64,000 nucleotides of DNA from Escherichia phage SD2, in the sequence record PQ821640. One strand, given 5' to 3'. The position numbers were made by a program, and so were the translations under genes. Positions 1-9,341 of the stretch are shown here, in pieces (position 1 is the first letter of the stretch; each line of letters begins with the position of its first letter). The notes beneath the pieces are model-generated. The model was given only the letters and a program-made list of their open reading frames with translations, did no database searches and was not told the origin of the DNA.

Positions 1-1116
1 TTACTCTGCTGGTTCCCAAGTACCTGGAATCATCTTACGTACACGTACACCTGTTGGTTTAGTAGGTATTCCACCATCGGAAAACTCTTCATACTCAATC
101 TCAACAAATTTACCAATTAACATTTCGGCATTTTCTGCTTTACGATAGTTAATGGTTTCATCTGAATCCTTACGCATCAGGAATTCGACTACTTTACCAT
201 TTTCCATCTCGCCTGTCAATACCCCGTCACCATTTTTATCACGTTTTGCACTTACCACTTTAACTTCAAGCGTCTGCCGTGGTTTACGTTTAATAACATC
301 ATAAGAACGTTTATCAAACTCGTAAACACCTTGTGCATTACGATACACAACACCTTCAGCTTTCTCACGCAGAGCTTTTGCATAGAACGCATCAAACTGC
401 TCTTGGTTTTCAATGTACTCTGTATGTACTACACAAATAAGTTCATCTAAACCTTTATCTTCAACAACTTCTTTTAGAGCAGCCAAAACTTCAACCCTCT
501 TCTCAAATGGTACAGATGGCACAGGAACATCATATACATAGTATTTAAGAAGCGGAGTGTTAGCATTATGCTTTTTCCACGCACTATTGATTTGTTGAAG
601 GCTAAGGACACCCAAACCAGCAAAAACTTCACCGTCAAGAGGATGACCAACTACTTCTTTAATGAAGGTTGGAATTTCTTTCCAGTGAGGTGGAAGTTTA
701 TATACTTCCCCAGCTTTAGATAAGCATTCACCTTGCATGTTAATCATTGAACGTAGACCATTCAATTTATACTGTGCATAACCTGGGAACAAAACACGAT
801 CAGCATAATCTTTATAATCCTGACATTTCATGGGTGTGGAAGGAACATGGTTTTCAGCTTCCTCTTTTGTTTTATAATACCCATTCTTAAGTTGCTTTGT
901 CCATTTGGCAAGAGCTTCTATTTCAGCTTGTTCTTCTGCTGTTGTTTCATTTGAGCGACCAATATTTTTAGGTTCTGCTGTATAAGATTTGCTAGTAATC
1001 TTTCCACCTAATTGACCATGAGCAACAGTTACAACACTACCTTCGGTATAGACTGACCACTGTTTAATTTTACCTGTAGAAGTTTTACCATACAATGTAG
1101 GATTAGTTTGTTTCAT
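1..1116 (-). CDS. ATP-dependent DNA ligase
   Basis: Motif I KxNGxR (YKLNGLR) and motif IV EGVVYR in the translation; start chosen at ATG 1116 behind a GGAGG site rather than the upstream ATG at 1164; stop at window position 1-3. Confidence 0.8.
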   Translation of the reverse strand: MKQTNPTLYGKTSTGKIKQWSVYTEGSVVTVAHGQLGGKITSKSYTAEPKNIGRSNETTAEEQAEIEALAKWTKQLKNGYYKTKEEAENHVPSTPMKCQDYKDYADRVLFPGYAQYKLNGLRSMINMQGECLSKAGEVYKLPPHWKEIPTFIKEVVGHPLDGEVFAGLGVLSLQQINSAWKKHNANTPLLKYYVYDVPVPSVPFEKRVEVLAALKEVVEDKGLDELICVVHTEYIENQEQFDAFYAKALREKAEGVVYRNAQGVYEFDKRSYDVIKRKPRQTLEVKVVSAKRDKNGDGVLTGEMENGKVVEFLMRKDSDETINYRKAENAEMLIGKFVEIEYEEFSDGGIPTKPTGVRVRKMIPGTWEPAE

Positions 1117-1306
1117 CTTTAACCTCCAGTTGCGAAAGAACCCATTTAGCCATTTCAATTTCACCGTGTAGTCTGCCTAGTTCATAGGCATCATCAATAT
1201 TACCACCAGTGTAATCATCCACCATAAAGTAAGGATCTTCGCTACTGTTAGGTGCGTTTGCAATTCTCGTTAGTTCTTCAATAAATGTCATAGTTACCCT
1301 TACCAA
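1103..1306 (-). CDS. hypothetical protein (67 aa)
   Basis: ORF in the co-directional early operon; overlaps ligase start by a few codons. Confidence 0.4.
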   Translation of the reverse strand: MVRVTMTFIEELTRIANAPNSSEDPYFMVDDYTGGNIDDAYELGRLHGEIEMAKWVLSQLEVKDETN

Positions 1307-1524
1307 TTATACACAAGAGTTTGAATCTCTTCCATCAAATCTTCAAGATCTGTATCAACGTATTCAGAAGATGTTGCCATAAAGTATGTAATCATTGTGA
1401 ACCCTTCCGAAGAAAGGGCATCAAGGATATCATTAAACATATCTTCCATTTCAGTATTCTCACCAAATGAGAATAACATTTGTTGATCTTCGCTTACACC
1501 TTTAACATAGATAGCTGTACTCAT
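1300..1524 (-). CDS. hypothetical acidic protein (74 aa)
   Basis: Tightly packed co-directional ORF. Confidence 0.4.
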   Translation of the reverse strand: MSTAIYVKGVSEDQQMLFSFGENTEMEDMFNDILDALSSEGFTMITYFMATSSEYVDTDLEDLMEEIQTLVYNW

Positions 1525-1527
1525 ATA

Positions 1528-1848
1528 TTAATCCTTAAGACGTTCATTTAAATCTGCAATAACATCACCTAAATCTTCACATTCCAGTGTTAACTCTGAA
1601 ACTTGTCCACTCAAATAACAAACTTCTTCATTTAGATCTGAAATAATGTTTTCTAATGAATCTACTTGGTCATCATACGAACGTTTTGTTTCTTCAAGTT
1701 CTTCCGTAAGATCATTAATCAAACGGAGCAAAGATAAGATATAACCGTCTCCTGTCTCGTTCCTCCACTCACTTCCGTAGCGATAAATAATAATTTCACC
1801 ATTATCGACTACTGTAAAATACTTACCTTCACCAGAATAAATTTCCAT
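1528..1848 (-). CDS. hypothetical protein (106 aa), acidic coiled-coil-like C-terminus
   Basis: ORF with overlapping stop/start packing in the operon. Confidence 0.45.
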   Translation of the reverse strand: MEIYSGEGKYFTVVDNGEIIIYRYGSEWRNETGDGYILSLLRLINDLTEELEETKRSYDDQVDSLENIISDLNEEVCYLSGQVSELTLECEDLGDVIADLNERLKD

Positions 1849-1857
1849 ACACTCTCC

Positions 1858-2262
1858 TTATTGTAGCTTAAGTGAACTGCGAAGACGTTTCTCTTGCTGA
1901 TCACGAATATGTTGTGGAACCTCATGAATTGAGTCGTTACCGTGCCTATTTTCAACAACTAAAGAGATAACTTGATAACCAAACTCTTCAGCAAGAGTTA
2001 AATAAGGTTTAAGTTCTTTCTCTGTGGTTGAAGTGTTAGAGACAATAATCTTTTTAATATTAGATGCCATAGCATCACGAACAATACTCTGACACCATGC
2101 GTGTGCTTTACCTACATTCTCTGGCTTCCAATCGTAAACACCACTTTCTGTGTAATGATATTGATCTGCCTCACAGATAGGCCAATAACCTTCAGAAATA
2201 ATTTCTGCTACTGTAGATTTACCTGCACCTGAAACACCACGTAAAATGATAAGTTGTTTCAT
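1858..2262 (-). CDS. P-loop kinase, polynucleotide 5-prime-kinase-like
   Basis: Walker A GVSGAGKST at the N-terminus; size and layout resemble the T4 Pnk kinase domain; sits directly downstream of a ligase-like and a phosphoesterase gene. Confidence 0.6.
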   Translation of the reverse strand: MKQLIILRGVSGAGKSTVAEIISEGYWPICEADQYHYTESGVYDWKPENVGKAHAWCQSIVRDAMASNIKKIIVSNTSTTEKELKPYLTLAEEFGYQVISLVVENRHGNDSIHEVPQHIRDQQEKRLRSSLKLQ

Positions 2263-3195
2263 TTAGCCTCCAAAGAAGTTTTCTATTTCTTTACGTCGCT
2301 CTTGTGGATCTAAAGCAGCCCATTGAGTCTTAGTAAAGTTGTTTCGAAGCCATTCTAGCAAAGTATAATATTCTTCGTCAACAATTTGTTTAGCATTTTT
2401 TGGGTTGTCCCAAATCATATCCCACTTCTTATTGCCACCACGCATAAGGAATTTCTTAGCAAGATAGTATGGTGACTTAATCTTTAACAGCAAGTTAAAC
2501 GGATAGTTTGTTTCACGAACAACAAACCCTTCGTGCTTACAATGTTTAGACATTTCAACAACATCTGAAAATTTAATCATCGGATAAACTTCAGGACGTT
2601 TAAATTTTGTAATAGATGCAATCCCATCGAGCACACCTTCAGGTAACATGAAACTTGTCCCATCAAGATTTTGAATCCTTGCTCCAATTAAGTATGCGCC
2701 TGGTTCTTCTTCGACAATATGTGGATCAGAAGCATCACAGATTTCAAAAAGGAAAGTTGCTTTTGCACTTTCTGTCCACTTAATGAAATATTCTATGTCA
2801 TCACACTCTGAAACAATATGGTTCTTGGCAAGAATTGCAAAATCTGACTCTAGGCTCCCTGTTGTTGATACAATAAGTTGCCCTTTGTACACACCTACAG
2901 ATGCCATAAAACCGTTTACTTTACGGACAGCATCTACAAGTTGGTCTGCTGGAAGATCTGTACCATTCTCAAAACGATTAAAGATTTTAGTAAAAGGCCA
3001 AATAACAACATTATCTTCTGAGTCAACAACCAACCCACGACAATCTAGAAGTCGTTTGTCAACGTTCCACAAGTTATCCCAGAATACATTGTTTTTGTAT
3101 TTAAGTACAGCAAGACCAGCATACTCTCCAGATTTAACTTCTTTTTTATGTACTAAACCTTTTGCAATCAGGTCATCACAATTGAACTTAGCCAC
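2263..3195 (-). CDS. ligase-family nucleotidyltransferase, probable RNA ligase
   Basis: Covalent nucleotidyltransferase motifs: motif I KVNG, motif IV EGFVVR, motif V LLKIK; distinct from the DNA ligase at 1-1116. Confidence 0.5.
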   Translation of the reverse strand: MAKFNCDDLIAKGLVHKKEVKSGEYAGLAVLKYKNNVFWDNLWNVDKRLLDCRGLVVDSEDNVVIWPFTKIFNRFENGTDLPADQLVDAVRKVNGFMASVGVYKGQLIVSTTGSLESDFAILAKNHIVSECDDIEYFIKWTESAKATFLFEICDASDPHIVEEEPGAYLIGARIQNLDGTSFMLPEGVLDGIASITKFKRPEVYPMIKFSDVVEMSKHCKHEGFVVRETNYPFNLLLKIKSPYYLAKKFLMRGGNKKWDMIWDNPKNAKQIVDEEYYTLLEWLRNNFTKTQWAALDPQERRKEIENFFGG

Positions 3196-3196
3196 C

Positions 3197-3748
3197 TTAA
3201 TCTCCTTTGATTATCTTATGATGGTCTACAACAACAATATCACGCTTATCCATAATAGAGATGATTTCGTCAAAATGCAAGATTTTTCCGTGTGCGTCCC
3301 AACCAACATCCAACATTTTCCCATACAAATGATCAGGGAATGATCCGTGAGAGTGCCCGTGTAGCATGATTGAACCATGCCCTTGTTTATTCCAGGCAGC
3401 CATAGGATAATGACTTAAGACGAAGAACAGTTTCTGATATTTCACTTCGTCATAATACACCACCTCACCATATTCTGCAAGCACTTCTCGGTGTTTGCTG
3501 TAGTCATGGTTCCCAACACAGTAAGTAATATCCCCTTGAAGACGTGAAGCAATCTTACGGGTATCTTCTTCAGTCCCGAAACAGAAGTCGCCCAAGTGCC
3601 ACATCTTGACACCAGGACTCGTAGCACATTTATTCCATGCTTCAATCAGGGCTTCTGTCATATGATCCATATCTTCCCACTGGCGATATTCAGGAGCAAA
3701 CTCTCGAATACGTTTGTGCATAAAATGCAAATCACTTGTAATAAACAT
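3197..3748 (-). CDS. calcineurin-like metallophosphoesterase
   Basis: Motifs DLHF, GDFCFG, GNHD, HGHSHG in canonical order. Confidence 0.75.
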   Translation of the reverse strand: MFITSDLHFMHKRIREFAPEYRQWEDMDHMTEALIEAWNKCATSPGVKMWHLGDFCFGTEEDTRKIASRLQGDITYCVGNHDYSKHREVLAEYGEVVYYDEVKYQKLFFVLSHYPMAAWNKQGHGSIMLHGHSHGSFPDHLYGKMLDVGWDAHGKILHFDEIISIMDKRDIVVVDHHKIIKGD

Positions 3749-4110
3749 TAGTATAATCCCTCGCTGAATAGTTCACTGTCGTGACCATTTCTTTCATAGT
3801 TAATTTGTTTGGCGTTATCTGCAATGATATAAGCATCTTTGCGACTCCACCAGTTATAATACTGATCAATAAACCATTGATTATCAGGTAAGCAAAACAG
3901 TTTATCAATCAACCCTGCATCTTTTAAAACATTAAGTTGTGCAGATAATACAGGATTTGCATGCCTAACACAAGGAATAATTAACTCTTCGCCATTGTTG
4001 AGGATATACTTATTCGCAGCGCATACTATAACACGTTGAGCATAGTGATCCTCACCAATCCAAGTAAGAGGTTGGTAACAAATATCATGTTGATTAGTAG
4101 CGCACATCAA
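3748..4110 (-). CDS. hypothetical protein (120 aa)
   Basis: ORF with start overlapping upstream stop. Confidence 0.45.
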   Translation of the reverse strand: MMCATNQHDICYQPLTWIGEDHYAQRVIVCAANKYILNNGEELIIPCVRHANPVLSAQLNVLKDAGLIDKLFCLPDNQWFIDQYYNWWSRKDAYIIADNAKQINYERNGHDSELFSEGLY

Positions 4111-4265
4111 TTTTCTCCGTACTCTTTTAATCTATCAGCGAAAAAACTGTAATCAGGAAGTAAAAGATCATTACTCGTATCGTTACAGTTTTCTTCATCT
4201 TTATAGATAAAACGCCCTTCATCCTCTTCTTGCTCTGACCAAACTGAGTAATGCATAATACCTAC

Positions 4266-4640
4266 TTAATAGTTAACACGTTTAATTTCAACACCATAGG
4301 ATGAAATAAAATTTTCCTTAGCTAACATATATTTAGCGGCAGCAGAAGGATTTGATGTATGAACATAGATAGTTTTAAGAGCATCCCATTCACCAGCGTA
4401 CAACATACATTCTACGTCTAAGAACGCATGATATCCTTCTTGATCTTCTCCAAGATCATTATCGAAGTGTATCTCTGAGATGTTATTGAAATTATCTTCA
4501 TCTGAAACAAAAGATAACCAATCCTCAAAAGATTTTAACCAAATGGCATCCTCATAACCATAATCTTTAGGATCTCTTAAATCGTCTAACCAAAGAATTT
4601 TAGCCACTATCAACCCCCTTCCTGTTTCTCTTCTTTCCAA
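4266..4640 (-). CDS. hypothetical acidic protein (124 aa)
   Basis: ORF in early block. Confidence 0.45.
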   Translation of the reverse strand: MERRETGRGLIVAKILWLDDLRDPKDYGYEDAIWLKSFEDWLSFVSDEDNFNNISEIHFDNDLGEDQEGYHAFLDVECMLYAGEWDALKTIYVHTSNPSAAAKYMLAKENFISSYGVEIKRVNY

Positions 4641-4801
4641 GTTTTACCATTATCTACCAACTTCTTAGAAACAGCAAATCTTTCTCCATTGATATAAAAC
4701 AAATAAAGAATAAAGGATTTTCCTATAGTTACAGTATCTACTACTTTTACACGCTTCACACCTTGCATGTATTTGGCTTTACCTGAATAAATAAGGAACA
4801 T
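4610..4801 (-). CDS. hypothetical protein (63 aa)
   Basis: Short ORF, packing consistent with operon. Confidence 0.3.
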   Translation of the reverse strand: MFLIYSGKAKYMQGVKRVKVVDTVTIGKSFILYLFYINGERFAVSKKLVDNGKTWKEEKQEGG

Positions 4802-5079
4802 TACTTATTCCTTTTGTTGTTGATCACATCTAAAGCTGTGTAAGGTTTGTTTGTACCGCTGTATTCAAGAATAATTGGTACATATTCATAGATCAACTCA
4901 AAAGTACCATACATAGAATCTGCAACTGAAATAAGCATTTCAGTGCCTTTGTCGTTCTTAATTAATGAAAATCTTGCCCCTGGTTTATTGAGCACTTCAT
5001 ATTTCTTACCTGCTGTCAGCAAACCTGAATACCATTCATTTTGCACAACAGACAAACACTTCAGATAAGTTTTTCTCAT
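4801..5079 (-). CDS. hypothetical protein (92 aa)
   Basis: ORF in early block. Confidence 0.4.
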   Translation of the reverse strand: MRKTYLKCLSVVQNEWYSGLLTAGKKYEVLNKPGARFSLIKNDKGTEMLISVADSMYGTFELIYEYVPIILEYSGTNKPYTALDVINNKRNK

Positions 5080-5417
5080 TTCTTTTTGCTCCTTCTTTTA
5101 GGTTTCTCGTATAAACCTAACACAGCCGATTCTTTTGCACAAATAGGAACTGACTTCATTCCTCGTTTTTTAGCTTCTGGTAGATTCAAAACCCACCAGC
5201 CAAACCAGTACAATTCATCTTCTGTGAAAGGATCTGCCATAGGATCTGCATCACGTGCTTCAAATTTAGCAAGAGCTTCTTCTATCTTTTCTATTGGAGT
5301 ATCAAAGACAAAAGCCTCTGTGTCAAATTTTTGTTTCTTAGGAGCGGCTTTTGCCGCCCCGTCTTTAGATGCGCGCTTTGTTACGGATCGCTTCTTCGGT
5401 GTTTTCGCCATCAACAA
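5076..5417 (-). CDS. hypothetical protein with lysine-rich basic termini (113 aa)
   Basis: KKRSVTKRASK N-terminus and RRSKKK C-terminus suggest nucleic-acid binding. Confidence 0.4.
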   Translation of the reverse strand: MLMAKTPKKRSVTKRASKDGAAKAAPKKQKFDTEAFVFDTPIEKIEEALAKFEARDADPMADPFTEDELYWFGWWVLNLPEAKKRGMKSVPICAKESAVLGLYEKPKRRSKKK

Positions 5418-5604
5418 CCTCCATGCGGTGTAAGAAATCTTGCTGGAATCGCCAATACTGTTGACCAGTCCTTACATCTTCGTAGATCACAACAGGATCA
5501 AATACTTTAGATACACCCGCTGGTTTAGGAAAGCCAACTACACGATATAAACCGCCTTTGCTAATACAAGAATATGTTACATCAGTTAAAATTTCTTTTT
5601 TCAT
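5365..5604 (-). CDS. hypothetical protein (79 aa)
   Basis: ORF; overlaps neighbour so true start uncertain. Confidence 0.3.
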   Translation of the reverse strand: MKKEILTDVTYSCISKGGLYRVVGFPKPAGVSKVFDPVVIYEDVRTGQQYWRFQQDFLHRMEVVDGENTEEAIRNKARI

Positions 5605-5798
5605 TTCTTAATAAACTCCAATACAGGTACGTGATCAGCAGTTAAAGTTACACAATTGTAACTTACCTTTTCAACTTCAGAGAATGCTTCAACCCATAGC
5701 AAGAAATTCTCTTTAGCTTCTTCATAATTCAATGTTGACTTAACAACATGGAACTCACCAAGGATTACTCTGTAGATTGTTTGCATAGTTTGATTCAT
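5601..5798 (-). CDS. hypothetical protein (65 aa)
   Basis: Short ORF in early block. Confidence 0.3.
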   Translation of the reverse strand: MNQTMQTIYRVILGEFHVVKSTLNYEEAKENFLLWVEAFSEVEKVSYNCVTLTADHVPVLEFIKK

Positions 5799-5864
5799 TT
5801 ATTTTTCCTTTGTTTAAAATGTGTTAAACAATCGCAAATGCTTGTGACGCACTTTGTGATCCCA

Positions 5865-6272
5865 CTAATTAATGTCAGCACTATGATTGTTGAGAGTATA
5901 GGATACTCCATCGCCCAAGTCAACATGAATCTCAACTCCTAACTGTCTTTCTAATGGTAAACGTTTTGAGAATTGATAATTACAAAGTTTACAGTCTAAG
6001 TCAAGCAACTCATGTTTGCTTAAACCTGCAACGATAACTTTGCTTCCCACTGTCCACTCAATACCTTCAAAGTTATCTTTTCTTTTCAAAATGTCAAGTA
6101 AGAAGATGATTTGTTGCCATTCCGTAGACAAGTCTTCTTCATAGAAGGCAGAACAAAAAGTTTTATCATCGTAGAAAGCATACATTATGCCTCCATCTAT
6201 TGTTTCACTTCTAACGTAACGTGTGACCCTCATTATTCCCTCCTGTATGGCTCTGTAACGAGCTAATAGCAC
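5865..6272 (-). CDS. hypothetical protein (135 aa), first gene of leftward block
   Basis: ORF adjacent to divergent AT-rich control region. Confidence 0.45.
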   Translation of the reverse strand: MLLARYRAIQEGIMRVTRYVRSETIDGGIMYAFYDDKTFCSAFYEEDLSTEWQQIIFLLDILKRKDNFEGIEWTVGSKVIVAGLSKHELLDLDCKLCNYQFSKRLPLERQLGVEIHVDLGDGVSYTLNNHSADIN

Positions 6273-6574
6273 CTAAGATATGCAATCACCTTACCTCACA
6301 GTAAAACTCGTTACAATCGTTTTTAGGAGGTTTAGGTTGTACTTAAAAATAATCTAAAAAGGTGTTGACAAACGCAAAAAAGTATGCTACCCTAACCCAC
6401 GAAAAACGCCGAGCGCAGCGAGGGGGTGTTATCTAATCTTGTGATACATGATCTAACAGACAACTGAGTAGTCTACATATAGCACTATGTTATGTCTATA
6501 ATACTAACATACATGCTCTATACTAACAATAGATTATTTATTAATTTTATTATTAATTAAATAATAAATATCTA

Positions 6575-6603
6575 TTGACTTTAGATCTATCTGTATGTAG
6601 AGT
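6575..6603 (+). promoter_or_regulatory. sigma70-like promoter (TTGACT-N17-TAGAGT)
   Basis: -35 and -10 hexamers with 17-nt spacer about 40 nt upstream of the 6643 start. Confidence 0.45.
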
Positions 6604-6642
6604 AGAGAACATAAAGTCCTAACTCAACTAAGGAGATAAAGA

Positions 6643-7536
6643 ATGAAAGTTAGTATTCTGCATGGTGTTGACTGTTATGTTACTGATGTAGACGTTAAAG
6701 TGTTTACATTCTCTGGTGGAGAACAACATGTTCAATTAGATACGAATCTATCAGGTTTCAATCATGCTACAGACAGAATCTTACTCACTTTAGAAGTAAG
6801 ATCTGCTAAAGACTTGATGACTTTGGTTATGACTAAGAATGCATTGGACAATATGCTATATCATAAACCGTATTGTGTTGATTTACTCATGTTGTATGTG
6901 CCGTATGCACGGCAAGACAGAGTGTGTGAGCCTGGGGAAGCATTCGGAGTTAAAGCATTTGCTTCTATAATTAATTCATTAAATTTCTCACGTGTTATCG
7001 TTGCTGATCCGCATAGTGATGTTACTCCAGCAGTGTTTGACAGACTCTGTGTAATACCTCAAGAAGAGATTGCTTACGAAACTTTAAAGTGGAAGTTACG
7101 TATGGAGAATTTTGCTCTTGTTAGCCCTGATGGTGGTGCTCTTAAGAAAATATTTAAATTATCTAAGAAAATGTCTTTAGATGTGTTCTGTGCAGAGAAG
7201 GTTAGAGATACCGCAACAGGTGCTATTGTTCGTACAGACATTTCTGTACAGGATTTCAATAAGCGTAACCTGATGATCGTAGATGATATCTGTGATGGTG
7301 GTAGAACTTTTATCGAATTGGCTAAAGTGCTACGTGCTCGTAACGCAGGTAAGATTGAGCTATATGTTACGCACGGTATCTTTTCTAAAGGTCTTAAAGA
7401 GTTAAGTGAGCACTTTGACTGCATTCATTCTCTTAATGTGTGGGAAGATAACATCCAAGAAGATTCTGGTGTTCTTGTTAAGAATCAGTCAGATTTGCAA
7501 CAACAAATTGTATCTCCATACGTGTGGAATTTTTAA
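6643..7536 (+). CDS. ribose-phosphate pyrophosphokinase-like protein (PRPP synthetase family; possibly ADP-ribose pyrophosphokinase)
   Basis: PRPP-binding loop MIVDDICDGGRT and DPHS motif; AGGAG site before ATG. Confidence 0.75.
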   Translation: MKVSILHGVDCYVTDVDVKVFTFSGGEQHVQLDTNLSGFNHATDRILLTLEVRSAKDLMTLVMTKNALDNMLYHKPYCVDLLMLYVPYARQDRVCEPGEAFGVKAFASIINSLNFSRVIVADPHSDVTPAVFDRLCVIPQEEIAYETLKWKLRMENFALVSPDGGALKKIFKLSKKMSLDVFCAEKVRDTATGAIVRTDISVQDFNKRNLMIVDDICDGGRTFIELAKVLRARNAGKIELYVTHGIFSKGLKELSEHFDCIHSLNVWEDNIQEDSGVLVKNQSDLQQQIVSPYVWNF

Positions 7537-7607: not shown

Positions 7608-9341
7608 ATGAATATTTTTGCACCTTTTGCTACTGATTGGTACAAACCTGGTCACAAGCAGATGTACAACCAAAATACAAAACTTATTTTCTCTAATTTA
7701 ACTCCTCGTAATGATAAAAACTTTGCACACTATGCAGATCGTGAAGCACGTGGTGTGATTGTTTTAGGTATTCGTCGAGCAGTCACTGATGCTCTTGTAA
7801 CTATGTGGGATAGCTTCTTTAAAATGTCTCGTAGTGCAGCAGTAAATAAATTTTATCGTATGTCTAAAAATGCGTTAGGTGCTTCTGCTCCTTCTGCTGA
7901 ATGTTGGGGAGAATTGCACGACTTAGGTTATCTTCCGCTGGAAGTTCGATCTCTGCCAGAGGGTGTTTTGTGTCCTATTGGTGTTCCTGTATTTACTGTG
8001 CATAATACTTTAGAAAAATTCTTTTGGTTAACTAACTATGTGGAAACACTGTTGTCAGATGAAACTTGGAAGACAATGACTAATGCCACAGCAGCTTTTC
8101 AGTATAAGCGTATCGCTATGGCATATGCGATGGCAACGTGTGATAATATTGATCACGTTAACTTCCAGTGTCATGATTTTAGCCTACGTGGTTTAAGTAA
8201 TATCGAAGATGGTTATAAGAGTGGTATTGCTCATTTAGCATCTTTCACAGGGACAGATAATATTCTGGCTATTGAAACTGTGCATGATTATTATGGTATT
8301 GATTATGATCAGTTTGTTGCAGGTTCTATTCCGGCAACAGAACATTCAGTAGCAACTACTAACATTGGAGCTATTGTTGAAGACCTGAAGAAACATTTCC
8401 CACATCTTAAAGATGATGTAGATGGTCTTCGTTATGTAGCAGAGAAAGAGTTTCTTCGTCGTTATATTGAAGAAATTGTTCCAGAAGGTTTTTGTTCATA
8501 TGTAGCAGATTCCTATGATTACTGGGCTGTCTTGACTCGAATTCTGGTAGAATTGAAAGATTCCATTATGTCACGAAATGGTCGTCTTGTTATTCGTCCA
8601 GATTCAGGAGATCCGGTTAAAGTTGTTGCAGGATACAATGTTGAATCTTTTGATAACTATGAAGACCTCTTAAATAATGGTATTGCGACAGCCACTGAAG
8701 TAGTTCATTTGGCTGATGTTAATAAGTATTACAATGTTCTTCAGGATTGCAGTGTTGCTGACTGTATTGATGAAACTTATGAGATTCCTTATTGTGAAGC
8801 AGTAGGTTCTATTCAAATCCTTTGGGAAGTGTTTGGTGGTACTATCAACCGAAAAGGCTACAAGGTTCTTGATCAGCATATCGGTATGATTTATGGTGAT
8901 TCCATTACTGTTGAACGAGAACACGAGATCTTACGCCGACTGAAGAAGAAAGGTTTTGCAGCTTCCAATATTGTATTTGGTGTTGGTAGTTATACTTATC
9001 AGTTCAATACACGAGATACTTTCGGTTTTGCTGTTAAAGCAACAGGTAGTATCATCGGTGAACACGAAATTTTGGTAAGTAAGGAGCCTAAAACTGATCC
9101 TGGTAAACGCTCTGCAAAAGGTTTTATTAAGGTTGTTAAGGATACCAATGGTAATCTTTCTCTTGTAGATAATCTTTCTTTTAAAGATATCCAGGATGAA
9201 GACAATGAGTTACAAGTTATCTTCAAGGATGGTAAGGTTATTACACCACAAGTAGAAGGCCGTGATGAAACATTCACTGATATCCGCAACCGTGTTGATG
9301 TAGAGGTTCTTCGTACTATGGGAACCATCCAGGTTGACTAA
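7608..9341 (+). CDS. nicotinamide phosphoribosyltransferase-like protein (NadV/NAMPT family)
   Basis: N-terminal DWYKPGHKQMY resembles the NAMPT start; 577 aa; immediately follows the Prs-like gene. Confidence 0.7.
   Translation: MNIFAPFATDWYKPGHKQMYNQNTKLIFSNLTPRNDKNFAHYADREARGVIVLGIRRAVTDALVTMWDSFFKMSRSAAVNKFYRMSKNALGASAPSAECWGELHDLGYLPLEVRSLPEGVLCPIGVPVFTVHNTLEKFFWLTNYVETLLSDETWKTMTNATAAFQYKRIAMAYAMATCDNIDHVNFQCHDFSLRGLSNIEDGYKSGIAHLASFTGTDNILAIETVHDYYGIDYDQFVAGSIPATEHSVATTNIGAIVEDLKKHFPHLKDDVDGLRYVAEKEFLRRYIEEIVPEGFCSYVADSYDYWAVLTRILVELKDSIMSRNGRLVIRPDSGDPVKVVAGYNVESFDNYEDLLNNGIATATEVVHLADVNKYYNVLQDCSVADCIDETYEIPYCEAVGSIQILWEVFGGTINRKGYKVLDQHIGMIYGDSITVEREHEILRRLKKKGFAASNIVFGVGSYTYQFNTRDTFGFAVKATGSIIGEHEILVSKEPKTDPGKRSAKGFIKVVKDTNGNLSLVDNLSFKDIQDEDNELQVIFKDGKVITPQVEGRDETFTDIRNRVDVEVLRTMGTIQVD

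Follow-up and report, generated by a model that had tools for sequence, protein, structure and literature searches.

We analyzed a stretch of 64,000 nucleotides (nt) of DNA from Escherichia phage SD2 (PQ821640; this whole stretch is called the window below) and found that three consecutive genes on its minus strand, at 1858-3748, probably form a split 'heal-and-seal' RNA repair system, judging by protein family, catalytic residues, fold, gene linkage and gene fusions. The genes encode a putative metallophosphoesterase (MPE), a putative RNA ligase and a putative polynucleotide kinase, and their open reading frames (ORFs) are exactly as described in a first-pass annotation made from the sequence alone, which had read them as an RNA-repair-like cassette. 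The most likely target of the cassette would be tRNAs cut by bacterial defence nucleases. From upstream to downstream, the three genes (protein lengths in amino acids, aa) are:

3197-3748, minus strand: predicted MPE, 183 aa, aq_1665 clade of the calcineurin-like superfamily; proposed healer of 2',3'-cyclic phosphate or 3'-phosphate ends
2263-3195, minus strand: predicted ATP-dependent RNA ligase of the T4 Rnl1 family, 310 aa, GTG start; proposed sealing enzyme
1858-2262, minus strand: predicted stand-alone polynucleotide 5'-OH kinase, 134 aa, P-loop GVSGAGKST; proposed 5' end healer

Families, catalytic residues and predicted folds

By Pfam, profile, catalytic residues and modelled fold, the protein encoded by the middle gene is a predicted Rnl1-family RNA ligase and not a DNA ligase. 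It matches Pfam RNA_lig_T4_1 (PF09511) with 50.8 bits (cut-off 28.3, E 2.6e-13) and phrog_562 with an E-value of 9e-68, and a profile of 26 homologues matches T4 Rnl1 (2C5U; E 1.1e-9) over the nucleotidyltransferase domain. The profile was needed for this match (single-sequence phmmer against the PDB gave chance matches only), and it shows no sequence match to T4 Rnl1 past T4 residue 250. The motifs by which the first-pass annotation had recognized a ligase-superfamily protein, KVNG (K92), EGFVVR (E222-G223) and LLKIK (K238, K240), are present and invariant among the homologues. The invariant residues in the 26 homologues, which reach down to 50% identity, align as follows to T4 Rnl1 residues that we take to be essential, from mutational work of the Shuman laboratory:

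R53: aligned to T4 Rnl1 R54
K70: aligned to T4 Rnl1 K75
F72: aligned to T4 Rnl1 F77
K92: aligned to T4 Rnl1 K99
G95: aligned to T4 Rnl1 G102
E151: aligned to T4 Rnl1 E159
E222 and G223: aligned to T4 Rnl1 E227 and G228
K238 and K240: aligned to T4 Rnl1 K240 and K242

The first-pass annotation had also proposed structure prediction as a check, and this came out in its favour: an AlphaFold2 model built on the homologue alignment has a mean predicted local distance difference test (pLDDT) score of 90.7, and its top Foldseek matches are 5TT6, 2C5U, 9DO4 (T4 Rnl1) and Trl1-LIG (E ~1e-13, template modelling score 0.61-0.65), with T4 Rnl1 and the fungal Trl1 ligase domain placed ahead of Rnl3, Rnl2, Rnl5 and DNA ligases. 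The C-terminal region of the model (residues 242-309) is all-helical, with six helices; the C-domains of Rnl1 and Trl1 are all-helical too. The earlier view that this protein is unlikely to be the replicative ligase agrees with the Pfam assignment to the Rnl1 family, the profile match to 2C5U and the Foldseek results.

The kinase belongs, as predicted from its sequence, to the polynucleotide 5'-OH kinase family, and the solved structures closest to it are all of polynucleotide or RNA 5'-kinases, which bears out its earlier description as a polynucleotide-kinase-like P-loop protein. It matches Pfam AAA_33 (E 6.9e-10), phrog_2071 (E 8.9e-58) and phrog_505 'polynucleotide kinase' (5.8e-9). When a profile of 28 homologues was searched against the PDB, the best match was Capnocytophaga Pnkp1 (4XRP, 6.7e-7), and the other matches include two Mucorales tRNA-splicing RNA 5'-OH kinases (9D8A and 9DRZ), T4 Pnkp (1LTQ, 6.5e-5, over the whole kinase domain, residues 1-147) and the kinase domain of Clostridium thermocellum Pnkp (CthPnkp; 4GP7, 1.2e-4); gluconate, adenylate and other small-molecule kinases rank below these polynucleotide 5'-kinases. 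Residues G12, G14, K15, D33 and R106 are invariant among the 28 homologues; D33 is aligned to the general-base aspartate D35 of T4 Pnkp, and R106 lies in the lid segment, where the HMMER alignment pairs it with T4 R122, not R126. The protein (134 aa) consists of the kinase domain only, and a fused 3'-phosphatase domain of the T4 Pnkp type is not present.

The first gene product matches phrog_547 'phosphoesterase' (E 1.8e-54) and Pfam Metallophos_2 (22.3 bits, under the Pfam cut-off). It had been called a calcineurin-type metallophosphoesterase, and this assignment stands: the five motifs DxH, GD, GNH[DE], H and GHxH are all invariant in two independent alignments, and the predicted structure is confident and contains the superfamily sandwich fold. 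The family profile has one strong PDB match, Aquifex aeolicus aq_1665 (1XM7, E 5e-23); at E <= 0.1 it reaches neither the CthPnkp phosphatase nor lambda phosphatase. The MPE comparison gave the following values:

1XM7 (aq_1665): 17.7
LpxH: 11.3
YfcE: 11.0
MJ0936: 10.5
lambda phosphatase: 9.0 (rank 13)
CthPnkp phosphatase: 7.6 (rank 41)

The MPE is therefore best described, from its sequence, as a putative analogue of the Pnkp phosphatase module that falls outside the Pnkp/lambda-phosphatase clade. The computational checks proposed in the first-pass annotation all favoured its reading, with one reservation: homology to the Pnkp kinase was found (Pnkp1 and CthPnkp), but the phosphoesterase belongs to the aq_1665 clade, not to that of the Pnkp phosphatase.

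The MPE family is very large: a cut-off of E <= 1e-3 yields 23,495 cluster representatives. Long homologues (494-507 aa) were considered as MPE-Rnl1 fusions and rejected, as they are insert-split or tandem MPEs instead: P0392, P0466, P0476 and P0491 are split after the GH motif by some 270 aa of inserted, intein- or homing-endonuclease-like sequence, and P0478 carries the domain twice in tandem.

Linkage and fusions across phages

We surveyed 80 loci on viral contigs centred on relatives of the ligase (40-99% identical), whose ORFs were searched iteratively with the window proteins; dereplication of the surveyed ligases at 70% identity left 42 lineages, and the neighbourhood was set at 6 kb. 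The kinase is found near the ligase in 73 of the 80 loci and the MPE in 65, nearly always on the same strand and no more than about 2 kb away. After dereplication, 37 of the 42 lineages have the kinase, 38 have the MPE and 33 have both. The genes occur in opposite orders, MPE-Rnl1-kinase in 14 lineages and kinase-Rnl1-MPE in 17, and linkage that persists through rearrangement argues for function rather than inheritance alone. Two further genes discussed below, those for a sirtuin (SIR2) and for a protein with a 'cyclic-phosphate processing Receiver domain' (cREC), are each found in only 4/42 lineages, so that the kinase-ligase-MPE triad appears as the conserved core and the sirtuin/cREC layer as lineage-specific. 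A DNA ligase gene lies near the Rnl1 ligase gene in 16/42 lineages. In a reciprocal survey of 80 MPE-centred loci (MPE 31-45% identical), the kinase is found in 45 and the ligase in 39. The ligase by itself occurs in 664 phage records.

The same proteins also occur as fusions. Kinase-Rnl1 fusions of 421-432 aa, with the kinase N-terminal, are encoded in ten loci (L047, L050, L056, L058, L060, L061, L063, L064, L066 and L068); the 432-aa fusion of L056, for example, has AAA_33 at residues 16-115 and RNA_lig_T4_1 at 184-367. No MPE of the window family was found within 6 kb of the kinase-Rnl1 fusion genes, and no alternative 3'-healing enzyme was seen by Pfam among the neighbours of the fusion in L056, which is flanked by homing-endonuclease-like genes.

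The MPE has fusion partners of its own, and only two of its fusions are informative. One homologue (P0363), 54% identical to the window MPE over its full length (E 2e-67), carries a C-terminal RNA ligase domain (PF09414), the nearest solved relative of which is T4 Rnl2, and another (P0407) is fused to a 'Swiss Army Knife' RNA-repair HAD domain (HAD_SAK_2). These MPE-Rnl2 and MPE-HAD fusions tie the MPE family directly to RNA repair. P0363 is encoded at 5001-6575 of a locus (L165) on a 58-kb metagenomic contig (JGI contig Ga0066906_10000109), where the layout is the same as in the window: cREC (upstream of the MPE), a small ORF, the MPE-Rnl2 fusion, a small ORF, Rnl1, the AAA_33 kinase, small ORFs and a DNA ligase. 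This cassette has two RNA ligases of different families, the MPE-fused Rnl2 type and a separate 371-aa Rnl1. This joint occurrence of the three genes in distantly related phages, together with the fusions, is in line with the RNA-repair reading that the first-pass annotation had put forward.

Locus layout and neighbouring genes

The first 6300 nt of the window share 99.2% identity with Enterobacteria phage ECGD1 and 97-98% with about fifty further phi92-like E. coli myophages, which places the window in the phi92-like genus Justusliebigvirus (subfamily Stephanstirmvirinae). Five unannotated 'Campylobacter phage' records (including MG065639, MG065645, MG065656 and MG065689), with Campylobacter jejuni given as the host, are 98% identical to the same E. 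coli phage region, which points to wrong host labels or to coliphage contamination in that data set.

The cassette genes are tightly packed. The start of the MPE gene is overlapped by the upstream ORF (TAATG), 1 nt separates the MPE stop from the GTG start of the ligase, which is preceded by AAGGAG, and the kinase ATG abuts the ligase stop (GGAGGCTAAATG), with a GGAGG within the 3' end of the ligase gene. They are part of a long leftward gene string of early type that originates at a divergent intergenic region near 6300-6640, and with these back-to-back junctions they are probably co-expressed. We make no claim on transcription-unit boundaries, because scans of window 1-6800 were no better than in shuffled sequence for either promoter-like sites (29 vs 24.1 +/- 4.8) or terminator-like sites (2 vs 2.9). 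The other genes of this string that are considered here are:

4266-4607, minus strand: cREC protein, 113 aa, probable GTG start at 4607; PF20274
3748-4107, minus strand: 119-aa ORF between the cREC and MPE genes; T4 arn.3 homologue, phrog_839 (E 1.5e-44)
1528-1848, minus strand: 106-aa coiled-coil ORF directly after the kinase gene; phrog_18076, label 'hol-like chemotaxis'
1-1164 (annotated start 1116), minus strand: ATP-dependent DNA ligase; PF01068 (8.4e-11), phrog_114 (6.3e-76), NCBIfam PRK09125 (2.4e-18)

The DNA ligase, already noticed in the first-pass annotation as a distinct gene downstream, is identified by its PF01068 and phrog_114 matches; it lies about 700 nt downstream of the cassette, with three small ORFs between it and the kinase gene. 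The conservation of one of the neighbouring ORFs, the coiled-coil ORF, is limited to the closest relatives. By tblastn the arn.3-like ORF has counterparts in 1519 phage records, T-even arn.3 among them. GenBank entries frequently call it 'anti-restriction nuclease', a name that seems to have spilled over from the adjoining arn gene; the ORF was not counted as a fifth component of the cassette, being near the ligase in only 3/80 loci.

The cREC protein, which the earlier annotation had not mentioned, matches PF20274 with 55.2 bits (cut-off 27, E 1.2e-14), and its invariant residues among six homologues (D8, D9, D49-N50-D51, N86-P87 and K92) correspond to a Receiver-like acidic site. NCBIfam has no model for it, nor for the ligase or the MPE. 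The domain was defined in a 2021 jumbo-phage paper from the same group as PMC9503650, and its predicted role is the opening of 2',3'-cyclic or ADP-ribose (ADPR) cyclic phosphates. In rV5-like loci the cREC gene is found between the ligase and kinase genes and a SIR2 gene follows the kinase gene; we count cREC as an accessory component of the cassette within the rV5/phi92 lineage. The SIR2 gene lies between the kinase and DNA ligase genes in rV5-, phAPEC8- and Hena1-like loci. A search of the ORFs of window 1-6300 gave no SIR2 and no MazG. Phage JohannJBalmer (BASEL Bas62; MZ501084), which is 97% identical, has a sirtuin gene (bas62_0183, 103889-104701) about 27 kb downstream of the cassette, which corresponds to a position beyond the left end of the window; this relocated sirtuin adjoins genes annotated 'putative aminoacyl-tRNA synthetase'.

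On the other side of the divergent region, two genes on the plus strand encode a Prs-like protein (6643-7536; PF00156/PF14572) and a NAMPT-like protein (7608-9341; PF04095), a pair that matches the description of the NARP1 operon for reconstitution of nicotinamide adenine dinucleotide (NAD+; Adps + Namat). In 39-40 of the 80 loci and 20 of the 42 lineages (L004-L083), a NAMPT relative is found no more than 6 kb from the Rnl1 ligase, in varying order and orientation; the same holds for Pseudomonas phage PAK_P2 (L084), and there is mostly no adjacent sirtuin. Just past the NAD+ genes, at 10089-13525 on the plus strand, are 15 tRNA genes (two each for Met, Leu and Ser, and one each for Lys-UUU, Tyr, Asn, Thr, Gly, Gln, Pro, Phe and Ile). 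Both the NARP1-like pair and the tRNA cluster, neither of which was in the first-pass annotation, are within 10 kb of the cassette. A stretch of 13 kb thus concentrates three functions that would protect translation (RNA repair, NAD+ reconstitution and spare tRNAs), and this genomic setting fits such a protective role for the cassette.

Mechanism, alternatives and known systems

From T4 Pnkp/Rnl1 acting against PrrC, and from bacterial Pnkp, we infer the substrates, end chemistry and biological role of the cassette. The aq_1665-type MPE would convert 2',3'-cyclic phosphate or 3'-phosphate ends to 3'-OH by two-metal chemistry of the kind known from CthPnkp and lambda phosphatase (PMC2190708). 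The 134-aa kinase would transfer a phosphate from a nucleoside triphosphate to the 5'-OH, and the Rnl1-type ligase, adenylylated at K92, would then seal the 3'-OH to the 5'-phosphate; cREC may help in opening cyclic phosphates.

Several points weigh against this reading. Arg38 of T4 Pnkp is replaced in the kinase by a nearly invariant His36; K119 of T4 Rnl1 has no counterpart (the window ligase has Thr in the alignment); the tRNA-specificity domain of T4 Rnl1 (T4 residues ~255-374) is about twice as long as the C-terminal domain of the window ligase; and about 29 of the 80 MPE-centred loci are without kinase and ligase within 6 kb and have mixed neighbours (NUDIX, NT5C, DUF932), from which it follows that the MPE family is not restricted to RNA repair.

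The main rival is an NAD+-dependent, Trl1-like form of repair, for which a model has been published (PMC9503650, section 3.7.3), and which we consider unlikely. According to this model, cREC or the MPE would turn the cyclic phosphate into a 2'-phosphate by ring opening, sealing by the ligase would leave a 2'-PO4 at the junction, the sirtuin would remove this phosphate with NAD+ in the manner of KptA/Tpt1, and the MPE, cREC and Nudix-type enzymes would clear the ADPR-cyclic phosphate; the function would still be RNA repair, with a different chemistry and a different role for the MPE. The ligase model matches fungal Trl1 ligase domains as well as T4 Rnl1, and the presence of cREC in the cassette, the position of SIR2 in the rV5-, phAPEC8- and Hena1-like loci and the closeness of NAD+ reconstitution genes to the ligase in 20/42 lineages all speak for it. 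However, the sirtuin and cREC are rare beside the core triad (4/42 lineages each, vs 37-38/42 for the kinase and the MPE), and therefore the triad would usually work without them; moreover, the sirtuin in the genus of the window (JohannJBalmer) is some 27 kb away and outside the window, and the gene string showed no 2H or KptA gene. Since conservation centres on the triad, with the sirtuin/cREC layer confined to certain lineages, we favour T4-like heal-and-seal repair over the NAD+-dependent variant.

A second alternative, which we regard as improbable, is that the kinase and the MPE clean 5'-OH/3'-phosphate ends of DNA for the DNA ligase in replication, recombination or repair, with the Rnl1-like protein being incidental or acting on DNA/RNA hybrids. 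T4 Pnkp acts on DNA as well as RNA, the cassette is just upstream of the DNA ligase gene (which is also near the ligase in 16/42 lineages), and exonuclease and recombination genes come next in relatives. Yet most lineages have no neighbouring DNA ligase, the gene between the two healing enzymes encodes an Rnl1-family RNA ligase, and all the fusions (kinase-Rnl1, MPE-Rnl2 and MPE-HAD_SAK) are with RNA-repair partners.

It is quite improbable, too, that the MPE degrades small phosphodiesters (cyclic-nucleotide immune signals, or the ADPR-cyclic phosphate formed from ADPR-PP in the NARP1 pathway) and is merely clustered with the kinase and the ligase in an anti-defence island. About one third of the MPE-centred loci, with NUDIX or NT5C beside the MPE, lack kinase and ligase, NARP1-like genes are frequent neighbours, and spontaneous cyclisation of ADPR-PP has been reported; but the MPE is near the ligase in 38/42 lineages, vs 20/42 for NAMPT, the MPE and ligase genes are 1 nt apart, and close homologues of the MPE are fused to an RNA ligase (P0363) and, in another case, to an RNA-repair HAD domain. 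Finally, a role of the ligase mainly as a tail-fibre attachment catalyst like T4 gp63 is extremely improbable: this label, found on phrog_562 and many GenBank records, is inherited from T4 gp63 and was judged an annotation carry-over, whereas the catalytic residues of the ligase are all invariant, its gene has nucleic-acid metabolism genes as neighbours and is linked, in some phages by fusion, to those for end-healing enzymes, and the protein has no similarity to T4 Rnl1 outside the nucleotidyltransferase domain.

With heal-and-seal repair as the preferred reading, a broader suggestion can be made, which we hold only tentatively and think rather doubtful: the aq_1665-type MPE would represent a widespread but so far overlooked family of enzymes that heal RNA 3' ends (2',3'-cyclic phosphodiesterase / 3'-phosphatase), a family that is the standard partner of Rnl1 and a stand-alone kinase in non-T4 phages, and the linkage of the triad to NARP1 would reflect functional coupling and not mere island clustering. 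In such a coupling, cREC or the MPE may process ADPR-cyclic phosphate, or the phage may mount a joint defence against systems that combine NAD+ depletion with tRNA cleavage.

Defences that cleave tRNAs (PrrC, RloC, retron Eco7, PARIS, OLD and colicin-like toxins) are now regarded as common, and T4 Pnkp/Rnl1 is essentially the sole phage repair pathway that has been tested. Hundreds of phages with known sequences, infecting Escherichia, Klebsiella, Pseudomonas, Vibrio and further hosts, carry the cassette, and many of these phages are candidates for therapy (rV5-like, phi92-like and Pakpunavirus phages), so that knowing which host defences can be repaired would be of practical value. If true, the assignment would give a first function to the very large MPE family, and the BASEL phages Bas60-62, which infect E. 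coli K-12, make the cassette directly testable. Our analysis confirms an existing prediction and does not bring a new principle.

Heal-and-seal tRNA repair by phages is classical, the SD2 genes are already annotated in relatives and their neighbourhood has already been predicted in print. The three genes are annotated 'polynucleotide kinase', 'RNA ligase' and 'putative phosphoesterase' in JohannJBalmer, and the ligase is annotated 'putative RNA ligase/RNA repair' in ECGD1. A sirtuin-centred neighbourhood in rV5 and Proteus phage Mydo was described in silico, with possible NAD+-dependent RNA repair, by Iyer, Burroughs, Anand and Aravind in 2022 (PMC9503650), and its orthologous T4-like tRNA ligase, cREC, nucleotide kinase and calcineurin-like phosphoesterase are all four present in window 1858-4607. 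SD2 differs in that the sirtuin is not adjacent in its genus (~27 kb in Bas62), cREC is shifted upstream and no MazG was found in the gene string; in addition, the MPE emerges from our survey as a near-constant partner of the ligase, not an occasional one, and the sirtuin as lineage-restricted. A 2025 paper on the Pakpunavirus Adele (PMC12846349) independently proposed tRNA repair by the orthologous kinase and ligase beside NARP1; it notes the missing phosphatase domain and does not connect the nearby phosphoesterase with it. No experimental work on the cassette in phi92-, rV5- or PAK_P1-like phages was found in the literature searched.

One of the closest known systems is that of T4, where Pnkp and Rnl1 counter the PrrC anticodon nuclease: both are phage heal-and-seal systems of separate proteins, their kinases belong to one family, and their ligases agree in family, fold and essential residues. 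However, the removal of the 3'-phosphate in T4 is due to a HAD/DxDxT domain fused to the kinase, whereas the SD2 kinase stands alone and the candidate 3' healer is a separate binuclear metallophosphoesterase. The SD2 ligase is also shorter (310 aa vs 374 aa for T4 Rnl1), with a much shorter helical C-terminal domain, and neither ligase K119 nor kinase R38 of T4 is conserved. With the bacterial Pnkp systems (CthPnkp/Hen1 and the Capnocytophaga Pnkp1-Rnl-Hen1) the SD2 cassette shares the combination of a P-loop 5'-kinase, a calcineurin-type MPE and an ATP-dependent ligase, but these are joined in one polypeptide in trifunctional Pnkp and encoded by three separate genes in SD2; the bacterial enzyme has a Hen1 methyltransferase partner, while no methyltransferase is seen among the ORFs of window 1-6300, and the SD2 MPE lies outside the CthPnkp / lambda-phosphatase clade. 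Aquifex aq_1665 (1XM7, from structural genomics) shares fold and family with the MPE and provides no biochemical precedent. What sets the SD2 cassette apart from characterised systems is thus its split architecture, its minimal stand-alone kinase, its short-tailed Rnl1 and, most significantly, its aq_1665-type MPE as the likely 3' healer.

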